A stretch of DNA of 64,000 nt from Escherichia phage vB_EcoM_3HA11. A program made the translations under genes and the position numbers. The stretch lies in sequence record MN342150; one strand, written 5' to 3'. Within the stretch, counting starts at the first letter, position 1. Every line of letters begins with the position of its first letter. Below, one piece after another: positions 13,167 to 19,296 of the stretch. The notes below the pieces were generated by a model. The model worked only from the letters and a program-made list of their open reading frames with translations. It ran no database searches and was not told the DNA's origin.

Positions 13167-13433
13167 TTCTTCAAAAGTCTTTCAAAATCAATAACGTCCG
13201 GCAAAATGCTGGGCGTTTCAATTAATAAGCCAAGGTATAATGGCCCAACTGAAAACGCGGGGGAATTTCTTTGTCCAAGCCATTCATTCGTTCCGGAGTT
13301 GATTCTCTAGACTCCCAATTTAAGCCGAGCGAAGTTTTAATCCAACAAATTGAAACCAATCGTGAATTCATAGAACACATGTTGGCAAAGCCGGAAGGTG
13401 AAGCCGCTCAAACCACCAAAGAAGGTAATAACG

Positions 13434-15650
13434 ATGATTGAATCATTAACATTTAAAAATGCGGTAGCAACCGTCGCGCCGTCTAACCATGTAATCGTTG
13501 TGGATATCTCCGGTTCCATGTACCGTTCACTTCCTGAAGTTCGCAAGCATCTGAAGGAAAATCTCCCGTCTCTGGTTAAACCAGAAGATACCGTCAGCAT
13601 TCTTTACTTTTCATCCCGTGGTGATTTCGGTACGGTATTCGCTGGCCGTCAGATCAATAGCGCGACCGATCTCAGTGAAATCAATAAACTGATTGACCGC
13701 TTCCTGCAACCGTCCGGTTGTACGGGATTTGTAGAACCTCTGAAGTTGGCTGCTGAAACCGCGTTGAGCCTGAACAAACCTGGTTATGTCAATAACCTGG
13801 CGTTCATGACCGACGGCTATGACAACTGCTGGCGCTCTAATGAAATTCTGGCAGCAGCTGAAGTACTGCCCAAGGCGTTCGATAATATTACATTCATCGA
13901 ATATGGCTGGTACTGTAACCGCGAACTTCTGGCCCTGATGTCCGAGCGTTCTGGCGCGACTCACGTGTTTGCCGAAGGTCAGACTGAATATCAGACCGAA
14001 CTGGAAAACGTACTGAAATCATCTACGCCGAAAGTGGTTGTTGATGTTCCCCTGGTTTACACTCATGCCATCTACGTTGAAAACGGCGTGGCAACTGTGC
14101 TAGCCGTACAACCAGATGAAGAACACCCGATTGGCCACGTCAGCATCCCTGAAAGCGTTTCTCAGCTGTGGGTTGTAAACCCCGACATGATCGACCAGCT
14201 GGATAATCTGGCAGACACCCAGGCGGCATACGTGCTGGCATTCTATGGCGTGTACACCATGGACGCCGATCTGGTCTGGGCCGCGCTGAAGAAGACGGGT
14301 GACGTCCGCTTCATCAAACAATACAGCAACTGTTTCACCAAGCAGGACTATTCCAACATCAAAGTCGATCTGACCCAGGCTATCGTGGATGAAACTCTGC
14401 GCGGCGTAGATGGCATCGATTACAATATGGTTCCAGCTGAAGATGCAACAACCATTGTTGATGTCTTGACCTACCTGGCCGAAGCCGATGTCTCTGTTGT
14501 CACTAAGCATCCACTGTTCTCTTACAACAGTATTGGGCGCGGTACTGTACAGAAAGTTGACGACACCGAAGACAAATTGGCCGAAGAGATTGCGAATGCG
14601 ACTTCTAAAGAAGAGCGTAAAGCCCTGGCGCTCAAACTGGCCGAGCACGAAGATTGGACGCCGGAATTTACTCCGGTTGATGACAAAGGGATTGTCCCAA
14701 TTAGCAATCTGGTCTATAATTCAGAACGTCCTAACATCAGTGTACAAACAGTTCAACACGGAACGGTTGTTGTACCCGAGTTCGTACAGAAGAAATATGA
14801 ACTTCCTGAAGAGTTGGGAACCTGGCGTTATCGCAATTACACCATTGTCAAGGATGGTATCATCAACCTGAAAACAATGCCTATTACTGCGGATTCTCCG
14901 ATTGTTCGGGCTAAGGTGGCACAGGATTTGACTGCCATGGGTGTTCATGTGTTTGGTGGACCGGAAGTCTTCATTGTAAATCTGGAAAGTGTCCCAATGG
15001 TTAACCGCGCTATGACAAAGAATATCAGTGCTGCTGAATTCTTTGCAGACAATGTGCGCCGTGAAGCATTGAAGGCGAAACAAAAAGTTCTGAAATTCTA
15101 TCGTGATGAGCTGGTTGGTAAAGGCAATGCTGCTGGTTTGGCTTCAAAATATGGCAAAGAAGCGGCTGATTTCCTGTCAGCAAACGGCATTCGCGACTAT
15201 GGATTTTCACCGAAGACTTCTTCTGTAGAATCAACTGATGTCTATATGAGTCGTGAATTGAATGTGAAAATCAAAGGCGCATCTTCACTGCCGAGCATCG
15301 CGTCTGTTATCAAAAAACAGACGGACGGTAAAAAACTGAATGTCGCTGATCAGCTGATCGCTAATGCCCTGGCTGAATACAATGCATTCGTTAAATCACC
15401 GATGATCACCAGCGTACCGGAAGAGACTCAGAAAAAGCTGATCGAAAGTTGGATTGGTGATGCAGCAAAAGCAGCTATCAACGAAGTTCGCGCTCTGAAC
15501 AAAACGCTGTCCAAGGTAGTTTATGGGATTGTTGCAGGCCATGGTTGGTTTACCGACCTGGATTTGGAAGAATCCACTATGGATGTGGAAGTTGATGGGG
15601 TGAAATACACCGTCACTGCCGAACTGGCCGAAAAAGAAGTCAAAATCTAA
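13434..15650 (+). CDS. von Willebrand factor type A (vWA) domain protein (739 aa)
   Basis: Start at internal ATG 13434 with AGAAGG RBS. N-terminal MIDAS motif VIVVDISGSM plus downstream S/T and D residues typical of vWA. Confidence 0.7.
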   Translation: MIESLTFKNAVATVAPSNHVIVVDISGSMYRSLPEVRKHLKENLPSLVKPEDTVSILYFSSRGDFGTVFAGRQINSATDLSEINKLIDRFLQPSGCTGFVEPLKLAAETALSLNKPGYVNNLAFMTDGYDNCWRSNEILAAAEVLPKAFDNITFIEYGWYCNRELLALMSERSGATHVFAEGQTEYQTELENVLKSSTPKVVVDVPLVYTHAIYVENGVATVLAVQPDEEHPIGHVSIPESVSQLWVVNPDMIDQLDNLADTQAAYVLAFYGVYTMDADLVWAALKKTGDVRFIKQYSNCFTKQDYSNIKVDLTQAIVDETLRGVDGIDYNMVPAEDATTIVDVLTYLAEADVSVVTKHPLFSYNSIGRGTVQKVDDTEDKLAEEIANATSKEERKALALKLAEHEDWTPEFTPVDDKGIVPISNLVYNSERPNISVQTVQHGTVVVPEFVQKKYELPEELGTWRYRNYTIVKDGIINLKTMPITADSPIVRAKVAQDLTAMGVHVFGGPEVFIVNLESVPMVNRAMTKNISAAEFFADNVRREALKAKQKVLKFYRDELVGKGNAAGLASKYGKEAADFLSANGIRDYGFSPKTSSVESTDVYMSRELNVKIKGASSLPSIASVIKKQTDGKKLNVADQLIANALAEYNAFVKSPMITSVPEETQKKLIESWIGDAAKAAINEVRALNKTLSKVVYGIVAGHGWFTDLDLEESTMDVEVDGVKYTVTAELAEKEVKI

Positions 15651-15687: not shown

Positions 15688-16005
15688 ATGCTTATGTCAA
15701 ACAAACCAACTTATGTTGAAGTAATGCGTGTTCTGGCTCAGTACGCTTGTGACAACCTGAACATGGAAACTTGGCGCGACGGTGACCATAAAGAAAAGTT
15801 CGATAATATCGACGACAACATCGATGCGTTGGCTCCTCTTCGGGCCAAGAGCGATCTCGGCGGTGATGATCTTGACATGATTGAACTCATCATGGAAGTT
15901 GAAGAACAATATGATGTTGAAATCAGTGATGAATGGGTAGGCAAACATGGTGATGATCCCACGCTCGGCGAATTAGCTGAATTGGTAGTTGCCCTCCGCA
16001 AATAG
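15688..16005 (+). CDS. acyl carrier protein-like protein (Ser to Asp at the phosphopantetheine site)
   Basis: DLGGDDLDMIELIMEVEEQYDVEISDE aligns with ACP helix II (E. coli AcpP [27 protein letters not shown]), but DSL is DDL. Alternative start 15694. Confidence 0.6.
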   Translation: MLMSNKPTYVEVMRVLAQYACDNLNMETWRDGDHKEKFDNIDDNIDALAPLRAKSDLGGDDLDMIELIMEVEEQYDVEISDEWVGKHGDDPTLGELAELVVALRK

Positions 16006-16131: not shown

Positions 16132-16371
16132 ATGTCAAATAAAAAAGTAGAAACGACAGTAGAAATTGATCGTAATTGGGGATTACTCCGCGCTAAAGGT
16201 TTTCGTCGTGTTTATATGACCAAGGAAGTTTATGTTCAGCGTCGCGACGTTATTATCAGCAAGAAAGGTAAAGAGTGGGTTGCTGAAGAAGTTGACATTG
16301 AAACGGGTGTCGTGGGCAAAGTAAAAGCGAAGGCGGCTATTTTGTTTGCTCTTCTGAAGCATATCAATTAA
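16132..16371 (+). CDS. hypothetical protein (79 aa)
   Basis: ORF downstream of a promoter/terminator cassette. Confidence 0.5.
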   Translation: MSNKKVETTVEIDRNWGLLRAKGFRRVYMTKEVYVQRRDVIISKKGKEWVAEEVDIETGVVGKVKAKAAILFALLKHIN

Positions 16372-16409
16372 TTCTATAATTTACGGCGGGGTAATCATAC
16401 CCCGCCTAT

Positions 16410-16431
16410 TTGAAATTGCAGGAACTATATC
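16410..16431 (+). promoter_or_regulatory. conserved 5' leader motif TTGAAATTGCAGGAACTATATC(ATG)
   Basis: Near-identical 21-22-nt leader, including the SD, recurs before three unrelated genes (16432, 32720, 45979). Confidence 0.5.
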
Positions 16432-16710
16432 ATGACAGATCAAAGAAGTATTGCTCGTTCGGAAATCAAAGATATTATACAGAGCAAGACCAACGAAACT
16501 CATGCTCAATCCAGAATGTTATCTCGATTTGTTGAAATTAAGTTTGACATTGAAGAGAATAACAATCAGAGAGCGCTGGAGGGGATGTTGGCAATTATCT
16601 TGCGCCATTTCACCGATTCAGCATATGACATGGATGATTTAACTCGTTTGTTGAACGCCCAGAATATCGTTGGGACTTCTGTTCGTGAATTGCTGTTTAA
16701 GTCTGAATGA
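16432..16710 (+). CDS. hypothetical protein (92 aa)
   Basis: ORF preceded by a hairpin and the conserved leader motif. Confidence 0.5.
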   Translation: MTDQRSIARSEIKDIIQSKTNETHAQSRMLSRFVEIKFDIEENNNQRALEGMLAIILRHFTDSAYDMDDLTRLLNAQNIVGTSVRELLFKSE

Positions 16711-16747
16711 ACTAACTAAGGGATAACCCTATATCCCGAGGTGTGTC

Positions 16748-17197
16748 ATGTTTCTTACATCCTTTATTGACTGGATGAATATCATAAATGGCCTGAGGAT
16801 TCCTGTTGGGAATCTCGGGCTTTCTCGTTCTTCTATGCCGCAAATCGATGCCGACAAACAAGAAGATTTTCACAAATATCTTGAAGACAACGGCGTGTCC
16901 ATAGATGCTGCGCAAGTGCCCATCAAAATGCTTCGTCTTACCCAGAACGAAATCAATAAAATGAAGGTCTGGAAGATCATGAAGCAAATCAGAAATAAGA
17001 AACCTATGGGTCGAGTTTGGGTGTCTTCTGACAATTACGTTGTTGACGGTTCTCACCGATTTGTCGCTGCGTTGAACATGGATGGTAAACAGCGCATGAA
17101 GGTCTACAAAGTTGATTTGCCTGCGATGGAATTCGTAAAACTCGCCAAACAATTTCAGGGTGTGCGGTACAGAACGGTCAGCGATACCCGTTTCTGA
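16748..17197 (+). CDS. ParB/Srx-fold (ParB-like nuclease domain) protein
   Basis: LRLTQNEINKMKV ... VWVSSDNYVVDGSHRFVAA fits the ParB N-terminal/sulfiredoxin motif (...DGhHR..A). Confidence 0.5.
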   Translation: MFLTSFIDWMNIINGLRIPVGNLGLSRSSMPQIDADKQEDFHKYLEDNGVSIDAAQVPIKMLRLTQNEINKMKVWKIMKQIRNKKPMGRVWVSSDNYVVDGSHRFVAALNMDGKQRMKVYKVDLPAMEFVKLAKQFQGVRYRTVSDTRF

Positions 17198-17276: not shown

Positions 17277-17966
17277 ATGAAACGTTTAATCCTCGGGGTT
17301 GTGCTGGCAGGTCTGGCATTACCCGCCACCGCCAAGCTGAACTCCACAGGTGACAAACTGTGGTCTGATCTTTCCTACTGTGCTGGGTTCTCCCAGGCGG
17401 TCGCTATCGACAAGTCCGGTTCCATAGAGAATTTCGCTGAACTTTGGAACACGGGTAACGTCTCCACTGCTGTTGTTAATGCTGGGATTGAGTTCAACCG
17501 TTACAAACAGGGAGCCTACAACTTGAAAGGCTACCTGAATGACGATGAATTTAACCGAGGAGGCATGGAGGCTGGCGATCTCATCATGACTGGCCGTATG
17601 GGCACACAAGGCCGTATGACTGTAAGGCAATGCCGTTCTCTCCCCTCTCCGGCATTACAGAAGGGTGTGCAAATCGGGCGTCGACATTTGGATCTGATCA
17701 ATGATGGCAACCAATGCATCAAGGTGTTTGAATATAGTGCCGACCAAGAATCAGATCGACGTTTGAAAAAGGAATGGCGGACACGTGCCCTTGGATTGAG
17801 AGCATGGCTCGTAGAAAATGATTATTACTATGAGGATCGTGTTCAGAACGGATTGAAAGATCTTTCCACTAATTTGTCTGTCAATCTAGACGACCCAAGG
17901 CTTTCGCGTGAACTCAAGCAAACACGGATTGACTGCGACAATATGATGAAGGAGAACGAAAGATGA
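17277..17966 (+). CDS. secreted/periplasmic protein with signal peptide
   Basis: Start at internal ATG with strong RBS AAGGAG; N-terminus MKRLILGVVLAGLALPATA is a classic Sec signal peptide. Confidence 0.6.
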   Translation: MKRLILGVVLAGLALPATAKLNSTGDKLWSDLSYCAGFSQAVAIDKSGSIENFAELWNTGNVSTAVVNAGIEFNRYKQGAYNLKGYLNDDEFNRGGMEAGDLIMTGRMGTQGRMTVRQCRSLPSPALQKGVQIGRRHLDLINDGNQCIKVFEYSADQESDRRLKKEWRTRALGLRAWLVENDYYYEDRVQNGLKDLSTNLSVNLDDPRLSRELKQTRIDCDNMMKENER

Positions 17967-18283
17967 GAAACATAATATTCTTGTTATTCTTTTCTATGTT
18001 GGCATCATTCCAAGTTATGGCAACTCCGGCTAGCAAATTGAATATCTGTGCGGCCTGGTTGTCTACTTATCAACAATTTCACCCTGATGATAAAGATACA
18101 TCCATCCTTTTATCAGATTATGAAGGTGAGTTGAAACGCCTTGATCTCTACAGCGTGGATCAAATAGAGAATGCTTTGGATTTGCCAATGATGGAGTCCG
18201 CTGCCGACAATAGCAAACAGACGATCAAAGATCTGACTATGTGTCGGGAAATAGCGACTAATTTCGTTGGAAATCAAAGATAA
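17963..18283 (+). CDS. small secreted protein with signal peptide
   Basis: ATGA stop/start overlap; N-terminal hydrophobic signal MRNIIFLLFFSMLASFQVMA. Confidence 0.5.
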   Translation: MRNIIFLLFFSMLASFQVMATPASKLNICAAWLSTYQQFHPDDKDTSILLSDYEGELKRLDLYSVDQIENALDLPMMESAADNSKQTIKDLTMCREIATNFVGNQR

Positions 18284-18333
18284 TTTTCAGGTTAAAATTT
18301 AACTTCCATTGAACTGAAAGGAAATACTTCGTG

Positions 18334-19296
18334 ATGATTATTACTAAAAAGATCGCCGAGTCGATCGTTGAAAAGAATAAGATGTTCGCGCCCAACAAAG
18401 CAAAGGTCATTCTGATTCACGAAGACGGGCGCGTCATCTTCGCTGAGAAGTTTGAGCAGGGTTGTGCTTTCTGGTTCGCAGACACTATGCGCGAAAGCAA
18501 GCTGCAGGGCATCATCTATAAATTGACTCTGGTTGCCAAGCGCAATGATCAGGGTGATTGGGTTACGGTCTGCGATTTCAGCTCTAAGGTTGAAACTAAA
18601 CCCAAAACCCGCCAAGAAAGGATTTTAGAGGCTCAAGAAAAACTTCGAGTCGCTCGCACATCATCCACAGAGAAGCCGGAAATCAAACCAGCCGTTATGC
18701 CTGTCACCAAACTGCCTCCAGTGAGTGAAAAATCTGTTGAGCAGTACGCCGAGAAGCGCAAGGGTGACGGCATGTCTGTTTCAAAGATGTGTAAGATTGT
18801 TGAGCCTTTTAAGGGCGATTCTCCACATGAGCCGAATCCAGTATCTGAATCCCAGCGTTTGGTGAAACTGGAAGACGGCTATGTTGTGGAGAAGTCTGTT
18901 TCGACAGTAGAACCGTTCTGTCCAGATACAGCAAAAGTCAAATCGCTGGCTGAAAAAGTTCACGGTTCAGAATTCATCTCCCTGCGCGAACTCGAACCAC
19001 CTACCCGCCGCCGGATCGCAAATGAGTTATTTGTGTCCTTCAGACCTGACGGGAAGATCATCCTGTGTAAAGCCCTGCGGGATTCTCTACCTTGGACAAC
19101 CTTGAACATGGTAGTGACACGCGACTTCAATAGATTCGGTATCATGCAAGGCAAGGATTACAACGTTAACCAGAGCGGCACTTACGTCAATCGTGCCATG
19201 TGTTCCAAATTGGTCTTCCCTGAAGATACCGGAACCATACGTGTTCGTTTAGAATGGGATGAAACCCTGAACATGTATGTTGGTGATATAAAATAA
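18334..19296 (+). CDS. hypothetical protein (320 aa)
   Basis: RBS AAAGGAAA; no recognisable domain. Confidence 0.55.
   Translation: MIITKKIAESIVEKNKMFAPNKAKVILIHEDGRVIFAEKFEQGCAFWFADTMRESKLQGIIYKLTLVAKRNDQGDWVTVCDFSSKVETKPKTRQERILEAQEKLRVARTSSTEKPEIKPAVMPVTKLPPVSEKSVEQYAEKRKGDGMSVSKMCKIVEPFKGDSPHEPNPVSESQRLVKLEDGYVVEKSVSTVEPFCPDTAKVKSLAEKVHGSEFISLRELEPPTRRRIANELFVSFRPDGKIILCKALRDSLPWTTLNMVVTRDFNRFGIMQGKDYNVNQSGTYVNRAMCSKLVFPEDTGTIRVRLEWDETLNMYVGDIK

Follow-up and report, generated by a model that had tools for sequence, protein, structure and literature searches.

The ParB/sulfiredoxin (ParB/Srx) fold is known from several groups of proteins. [quoted passage not shown] In Srx-ATP structures, the phosphates are held by Lys61, His100 and Arg101. 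Among phage proteins, the fold is represented by the DdrB-like ParB domain (PF18763) of P1 DdrB, which undergoes processing and is carried in the phage head (Iyer et al. 2017, PMC5512222). Virion-carried proteins are prime candidates for first-line counter-defence because they are active before any phage gene is expressed, and the T4 internal proteins and the P1 Dar proteins are precedents for this; the T4 internal proteins are injected with the DNA and disarm defences (PMC12373910). Our literature search returned nothing specific on a characterised phage ParB/Srx anti-defence protein or on an injected ParB-like protein.

The protein described here is encoded by Escherichia phage vB_EcoM_3HA11 (record MN342150), within a stretch of 64,000 nucleotides that was analysed as a whole and is called the window below. 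The initial annotation had placed a 149-aa open reading frame at 16748..17197 on the plus strand, and the gene is real: the ORF call is exact (ATG start, 149 codons), a Shine-Dalgarno-like GAGG can be read off the sequence at 16738..16741 (+), 6 bases 5' of the ATG, and the gene is conserved well above chance. The product, an orthologue of Vi01_117c, has a calculated mass of 17.3 kDa and a calculated pI of 9.9. The window belongs to a Kuttervirus, Vi01-like and of the family Ackermannviridae: a region of 4.5 kb around the gene shares 96% identity with Salmonella phage Vi01, and megablast found it in 248 phage records. With the protein as a tblastn query, 417 phage records were matched, 388 of them with at least 80% query coverage and 280 with at least 60% identity, and they include Ackermannviridae of Salmonella, Escherichia, Klebsiella, Shigella, Dickeya and Erwinia. 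In the Vibrio member of the family, Campanilevirus GR28A, the tblastn-detected orthologue is 41% identical, and the protein was found in every Ackermannviridae genus sampled. The orthologue in phage Sajous1 (gp192) is 100% identical and that in LIMEstone1 (ORF101) is 83% identical. Phages of this family are widely proposed for biocontrol of Salmonella, E. coli O157, Klebsiella and Dickeya.

The family extends far beyond these orthologues. A search of 5.8 billion proteins gave 40 clusters for the protein itself, and an alignment of 21 orthologues (A1), which reaches down to 39% identity, has 27 invariant columns. The orthologue profile, used in an exhaustive HMM search, matched 4,870 representatives (clusters at 50% identity) at E ≤ 1e-3, of which 2,280 reached E ≤ 1e-10. 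Members outside Ackermannviridae include those of Aeromonas phage CC2 and Ralstonia phage RPZH6. PHROG 2859 (phrog_2859) matches residues 2–147 of the 149-aa protein at E 3.2e-45, through positions 316–467 of a 740-position profile. What the analysis adds is a very large and sharply conserved family around the protein, one for which Pfam and NCBIfam have no curated model; the fold label, in UniProt and in GenBank-derived names, and the published virion detection were already public.

The AF2 model of the 149-aa protein is composed of an N-terminal extension, a core and a single C-terminal helix. The alpha/beta core has the ParB/Srx arrangement, with strand 1, helix 1, a beta-hairpin and a helix that begins at the GxxR motif, and ahead of this canonical core lies a family-specific beta-alpha-beta extension that holds the segment R-x2-MPQ (R-S-S-M-P-Q, residues 27–32, 16826..16843 (+)), which is invariant in alignment A1. 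The two motifs on which the initial annotation relied are both present. The first, L62-R-L-T-Q66-N-E68 (LRLTQNE, residues 62–68), lies within residues 62–74, LRLTQNEINKMKV (16931..16969 (+)), at the first core strand and the start of helix alpha1; the second, D100-G-S-H-R104, closes residues 93–104, SSDNYVVDGSHR (17024..17059 (+)), which correspond to the GxxR-type motif of the superfamily.

In two independent fold searches with the model, all top matches fell within the ParB/Srx superfamily, sulfiredoxin, SerK and SbnI among them, and in one of the searches the next match scored only 3.8. Foldseek against the PDB also returned Noc and the ParB CTPases of Myxococcus, Bacillus and Caulobacter, and against predicted viral structures it returned relatives labelled "ParB/Sulfiredoxin domain-containing protein" in UniProt, a name that several members of the orthologue cluster also carry in their source records. 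The profile search that had been proposed as a check gave a divided answer. As a single sequence, the protein had no match in Pfam at E ≤ 10, none in NCBIfam and no meaningful match among PDB sequences (a PADLOC search also gave none), whereas profiles built at the family level pointed to the superfamily; the support for the fold therefore comes from structure prediction and from these family-level profiles. Three "ParB-like" PHROGs matched the protein weakly (E 0.0016–0.016). When Pfam was searched with 40 family domains, the only recurrent models were ParBc_2 (12/40), DUF1015 (5/40) and ddrB-ParB (2/40), all of them sub-threshold and all of them members of the ParB clan.

A broader family profile built from 40 diverse domains (A3) aligned with human sulfiredoxin over 73 columns (E 3.4e-4, 38% probability) and kept GxHR in register: K73 was paired with Lys61, S102 with the catalytic Cys99, and H103-R104 with His100-Arg101. 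Against PDB sequences, the best match of A3 was the DGHHRW motif of the free serine kinase (E 0.04), so that D100-G-S-H-R104 aligns both with the GCHR of sulfiredoxin and with the DGHHR of SerK. On the predicted structure and these profiles, we regard a ParB/Srx fold as nearly certain, and the fold was correctly recognised at the outset. Matches of the A1 profile to von Willebrand factor A1 domains among PDB sequences (E ~0.3) were discarded as spurious, since they come from a coincidental "DGSH".

How does the protein compare with each of the described groups? With the canonical ParB clamps it has the N-domain fold in common, and the conserved Gln of its first strand may match the Gln that is linked to hydrolysis in the ParB QPR box (Q52 in M. 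xanthus ParB, the residue mutated in PDB 7bnr). Unlike canonical ParB, it has neither the GERRxR box II nor an ENLQR-like box III (only one Arg is found in its DGSHRF), and no HTH or C-terminal dimerisation domain was detectable by Pfam in its 149 aa. A ParA gene is also missing. No ParA-type ATPase was found by Pfam in the ten neighbouring ORFs between 9.1 and 20 kb, nor is one annotated in the syntenic 12-kb region of phage rabagast, which bears out the earlier description of a stand-alone protein with no partition partner. A role as a plasmid- or prophage-type partition ParB has nothing but the common fold in its favour. Against it are the small size without those domains and box, the absence of a ParA gene within ~6 kb, and the nature of the relatives, which are Ackermannviridae myoviruses and lytic according to the literature; we consider this reading effectively refuted already.

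[quoted passage not shown] Both it and the family described here have the ParB/Srx fold, occur solo or embedded in giant phage polyvalent proteins, have no ParA, are linked to the virion and are predicted to have an NTP-regulated function. However, our family is separate from it: PF18763 matched P1 DdrB at 2.1e-39 and did not match the 149-aa protein, the two matches among the 40 family domains were sub-threshold with E 0.012 or weaker, and hhalign of A1 against DdrB gave a probability of 0.15%. The family also has its own R-x2-MPQ N-terminal extension and a TQxExN motif, which set it apart from DdrB-like ParB. Membership in the DdrB-like ParB family was accordingly rejected. Matches of the family to ParBc_2 (PF08857, "putative ParB-like nuclease") and DUF1015, a group that includes Atu1540 (PDB 2hwj), all lie below the gathering score, and the 149-aa protein itself gives none.

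Sulfiredoxin and SerK differ from the protein at the motif itself. The catalytic Cys99 of sulfiredoxin, in GGCHR, aligns with Ser102 here and with His in most of the family, and the peroxiredoxin context is absent; because Ser stands in place of the catalytic Cys, the protein is not a sulfiredoxin. SerK has a SerK_C domain that the 149-aa protein lacks, and the first His of its DGHHRW is Ser in the 149-aa protein, whereas the motif is common to both at the family level. In a manual, by-eye sequence alignment (MKPHE of SerK against LKPTQ), the catalytic Glu30 of SerK appears to be matched by the invariant Gln66.

The conservation of individual residues was counted over 163 aligned, very divergent domain instances. 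In the extension, R27 is present in all 147 instances that have the N-terminal segment, and M30, P31 and Q32 are found in 145, 148 and 146 aligned instances, respectively. Around the first strand, Q66 is kept in 161/163, position 68 is E or D in 146, position 70 is N or D in 137, and K73 is kept in 139. In the second motif, S93 is present in 150/163, D95 in 157/163, D100 in 162/163, R104 in 148/163, and G101 and H103 in every instance. Position 102 is more variable, with His in 127/163 and Ser in 21; across the family it is His, Ser, Asn or Thr and never Cys. The clade of the 149-aa protein has Ser where most relatives have His, and for this reason its chemistry may differ from theirs.

Eleven polar residues are thus near-invariant, an almost fixed signature that looks like an active site. 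Because they surround the nucleotide pocket known for this fold, they speak for an enzyme and against a scaffold, and catalytic use of a nucleotide by the 149-aa protein is somewhat favoured over its absence. An NTP would be expected in a pocket formed by K73, H103 and R104, with Q66, E68, N70, D95 and D100 expected to take part in hydrolysis or phosphoryl transfer. The opposite reading, in which the ParB/Srx core is only the scaffold of a non-catalytic protein associated with the virion or the DNA, for example an internal DNA-binding or DNA-condensing protein, would suit a small, basic protein found in virions whose clade has exchanged His102 for Ser. But conservation of eleven polar residues over 163 instances is typical of an active site, and H103 and R104 are both retained in the 149-aa protein, so that we think a non-catalytic role improbable.

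The relatives place the domain in a wider setting. Among the best 150 of the 4,870 representatives, 68 are no longer than 200 aa and thus stand-alone, and 82 are longer than 200 aa (48 of 201–500 aa and 34 of more than 500 aa, 10 of these exceeding 1000 aa). Two copies of the domain occur in one polypeptide in 13 of the 150 (P0051, P0054, P0058, P0062, P0070, P0072, P0074, P0076, P0077, P0117, P0129, P0146 and P0151); the R-x2-MPQ segment is missing from both copies in 6 of these and from the second copy only in 4 others. Such tandem copies suggest, at the level of sequence, that the functional unit is a dimer, as in the ParB clamps.

Fusion partners were counted in 68 multi-domain members, all of which (68/68) also match PHROG 2859. 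The most frequent were Zeta_toxin (9), AAA_33 and related P-loop kinases (5) and cytidylyltransferase-like domains (4), followed by PolyA_pol nucleotidyltransferase, HINT/intein and GNAT domains (2 each) and by a Mu-type portal, ADP-ribosyltransferases, Acb1 and RelA/SpoT (one each). Among the PHROGs matched by these multi-domain relatives are those for minor head protein, head maturation protease, portal and head morphogenesis. In P0151, a Mu portal is followed by a GNAT domain, two copies of the ParB/Srx-like domain and a zeta toxin, and in Ralstonia phage RPZH6 the domain lies at the C-terminal end of a 1,232-residue protein that has an SLT transglycosylase at its N-terminus, is labelled "DarB-like" and adjoins genes annotated as virion-associated proteins. 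Virion-delivered "polyvalent proteins" of such multi-domain architecture have been described (Iyer et al. 2017, PMC5512222). The family is therefore a polyvalent-protein module, met repeatedly and often as tandem copies in proteins that also contain portal, zeta-toxin or SLT modules. This association is new here, and the 149-aa protein is the solo form of the module. The partners in a polyvalent protein need not act in the same pathway as the ParB/Srx-like domain. Once the substrate of the 149-aa protein is defined, a large part of phage "dark matter" could be annotated along with this recurrent module.

A fusion-derived name appears to have travelled in one record. In Klebsiella phage phi1_146041 (PP889490.1, 33420..33866), a 93%-identical orthologue is labelled "cytidyltransferase". 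The "cytidyltransferase" profile phrog_3041 matches the ParB/Srx-like domain only through its C-terminal positions 570–637 of 678, and the 149-aa protein has no cytidylyltransferase domain; the label looks like an annotation transfer from fused proteins.

Evidence that the stand-alone protein is itself carried in virions comes from the literature. In mass spectrometry of purified Sajous1 virions, gp192, the identical protein, was represented by 11 spectra. In LIMEstone1, a 17.31-kDa "unknown structural protein" was detected in virions with 5 unique peptides and 35.6% coverage, and all 12 unknown structural proteins of that phage have structural counterparts in the ViI proteome (PMC3296691). 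The LIMEstone1 orthologue at HE600015.1 73878..74327 (GenBank ORF101, 149 aa, "confirmed structural protein") has a calculated mass of 17.30 kDa, which fits the detected protein, and Vi01_117c is annotated as "phage associated protein". The numbering of LIMEstone1 is one off between sources: ORF 102 in Table 2 of PMC3296691 is GenBank ORF101, and GenBank ORF102 is an 80-aa hypothetical protein.

We judge it probable that the 149-aa protein is a true virion component. The main competing explanation is that it acts inside the cell as a ParB-type nicking nuclease or NTPase in replication, recombination or breakdown of host DNA, and that it was only carried over into the particle preparations. Non-virion proteins are present in the Sajous1 virion data as well, namely RegB (31 spectra), a single-strand DNA-binding protein and other non-structural ones, and hence a DNA-binding protein of pI 9.9 could likewise co-purify with the particles; the gene, moreover, is set among non-structural genes and apparently co-transcribed with them, and there are reports of ParB-like domains with non-specific nickase or NTPase activity (see the review PMC5512222). 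Carry-over accords less well with detection in independent virion proteomes (Sajous1 and LIMEstone1, and ViI according to PMC3296691 and as implied by the Vi01 annotation), with a coverage in LIMEstone1 that exceeds that of many bona fide structural proteins there, and with the covalent fusion of relatives to portal, head-morphogenesis, prohead-protease and SLT modules. On balance, we find the intracellular explanation unlikely, though it has the largest share among the alternatives.

The capsid-targeting leader of the T4 internal proteins is N-terminal and ends in a (L/I)xE site for the prohead protease. Such a leader is absent here: residues 1–25, MFLTSFIDWMNIINGLRIPVGNLGL, contain no Glu and so can hold no (L/I)xE cleavage site. 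Ip1–Ip3 are only functional analogues, small and basic and carried in a T4-related virion like the 149-aa protein but unrelated to it in sequence and fold. A helix is predicted at residues 2–15 (FIDWMNIINGL; 16751..16792 (+)) in the AF2 secondary structure with a pLDDT of 65–75. According to the alignments, it is kept in close stand-alone relatives and is variable or absent elsewhere in the family; its use in virion targeting is only a guess, and the idea of a common packaging signal was dropped because the helix is missing from many relatives.

Taken with the fold, virion detection leads us to picture a small, basic, single-domain enzyme, made of the R-x2-MPQ beta-alpha-beta extension and the canonical core, that would be made by a virulent Vi01-like myovirus and incorporated in the virion, and would most likely enter the cell alongside the DNA. 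It would probably work as a nucleotide-dependent dimer, and its target, from the moment infection begins, would be the incoming or host DNA or else a nucleotide pool or signal. For this picture as a whole, a packaged nucleotide-using enzyme that enters with the DNA and acts at once, we see the chances as about even; for its steps of ejection and an early role taken separately, which we infer as we do nucleotide use, dimerisation and the target, our confidence falls just below that. A bolder generalisation, that the PHROG 2859 family is an unrecognised class of virion-delivered, nucleotide-dependent ParB/Srx phosphotransferases or NTPases active in the first moments of infection, strikes us as rather unlikely. 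If true, large myoviruses would carry the solo form while in other phages the domain, often as a tandem, is joined to portals, zeta-toxin kinases and anti-signalling domains; a nucleotide signal of host defence, or the end of the incoming DNA, could be the substrate.

Two further roles relate to the modified DNA of these phages. Type IV restriction enzymes that attack hypermodified DNA have ParB-like (DUF262/GmrS-type) NTPase domains, and a delivered protein could pair with these as a decoy or poison subunit; the 149-aa protein would then be the Ackermannviridae counterpart of the T4 internal proteins, but we give this idea very little weight. Slightly less weight still goes to a part in 5-NeOmdU thymidine hypermodification, for example as a kinase of the ParB/Srx type with DNA as its substrate. 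The DNA of the phage is indeed hypermodified, and sulfiredoxin, SerK and SbnI show that the fold can be a phosphotransferase; against this, ViI gp67, gp160, gp226, gp243 and gp247 were sufficient to reconstitute 5-NeOmdU in E. coli lysates, in a study that does not mention a ParB-like protein (PMC5889632), and the family is widespread outside Ackermannviridae, as in Aeromonas CC2 and Ralstonia RPZH6. Because those five other genes sufficed in lysates, the 149-aa protein is not needed for hypermodification of Vi01 thymidine, and the DNA-modification context proposed in the initial annotation is not supported.

The preferred reading of a packaged enzyme has to be set beside the position of its gene, which lies outside the head and tail modules among genes for an acyl carrier protein, spanins, an HU-like protein and a helicase. 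A check of neighbours in related phages, suggested at the outset, could be carried out, but the stand-alone form turned out to have no conserved neighbour. The gene adjoins spanin genes in Kuttervirus and Limestonevirus, is close to the gene of the gp2 DNA-end protector in a Vibrio phage of the Ackermannviridae, stands between hoc and tk in Aeromonas CC2, and in Stenotrophomonas Moby adjoins a baseplate hub gene, near a cytidylyltransferase. In the window, the genes directly downstream, 17277..17966 and 17963..18283 (+), form a pair with a 4-nt overlap that in relatives is labelled as an i-spanin and a lipoprotein (o-spanin-like); a Pfam search gave no match in either ORF. The ParB-like gene and these spanin-type lysis genes appear to form one transcription unit. 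The T4-type late promoter consensus TATAAATA has no site near the gene, and over both strands of the 64-kb window it occurs twice (50426 and 55229, both minus) against ~1.7 expected; Vi01-like phages encode a gp55-like late sigma factor, and their late promoter consensus may therefore differ from that of T4. Scans for sigma-70 promoters and terminators were uninformative.

Upstream of the gene, 13398..15650 (+) encodes a 750-aa VWA-domain protein (Pfam VWA, E 8e-7) and is followed by the acyl carrier protein gene at 15688..16005. The VWA orthologue was also found in virions, with 6 peptides in LIMEstone1 (ORF108) and 1 spectrum in Sajous1 (gp185). In Vi01, rabagast, Sajous1 and LIMEstone1, denV (a pyrimidine-dimer DNA glycosylase gene of 456 nt) lies between ORFs of 240 and 279 nt; it is absent from the window at 16371..16432, where the flanking small ORFs are only 60 bases apart, and the megablast match to Vi01 in three pieces would fit a denV indel. 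Downstream of the lysis pair, 18331..19296 (+) is one ORF of 321 aa, as in Vi01 (Vi01_114c, 963 nt), and the gene models for this region are inconsistent among relatives, with two genes (453 and 363 nt) in rabagast and one gene of 807 nt in Sajous1.
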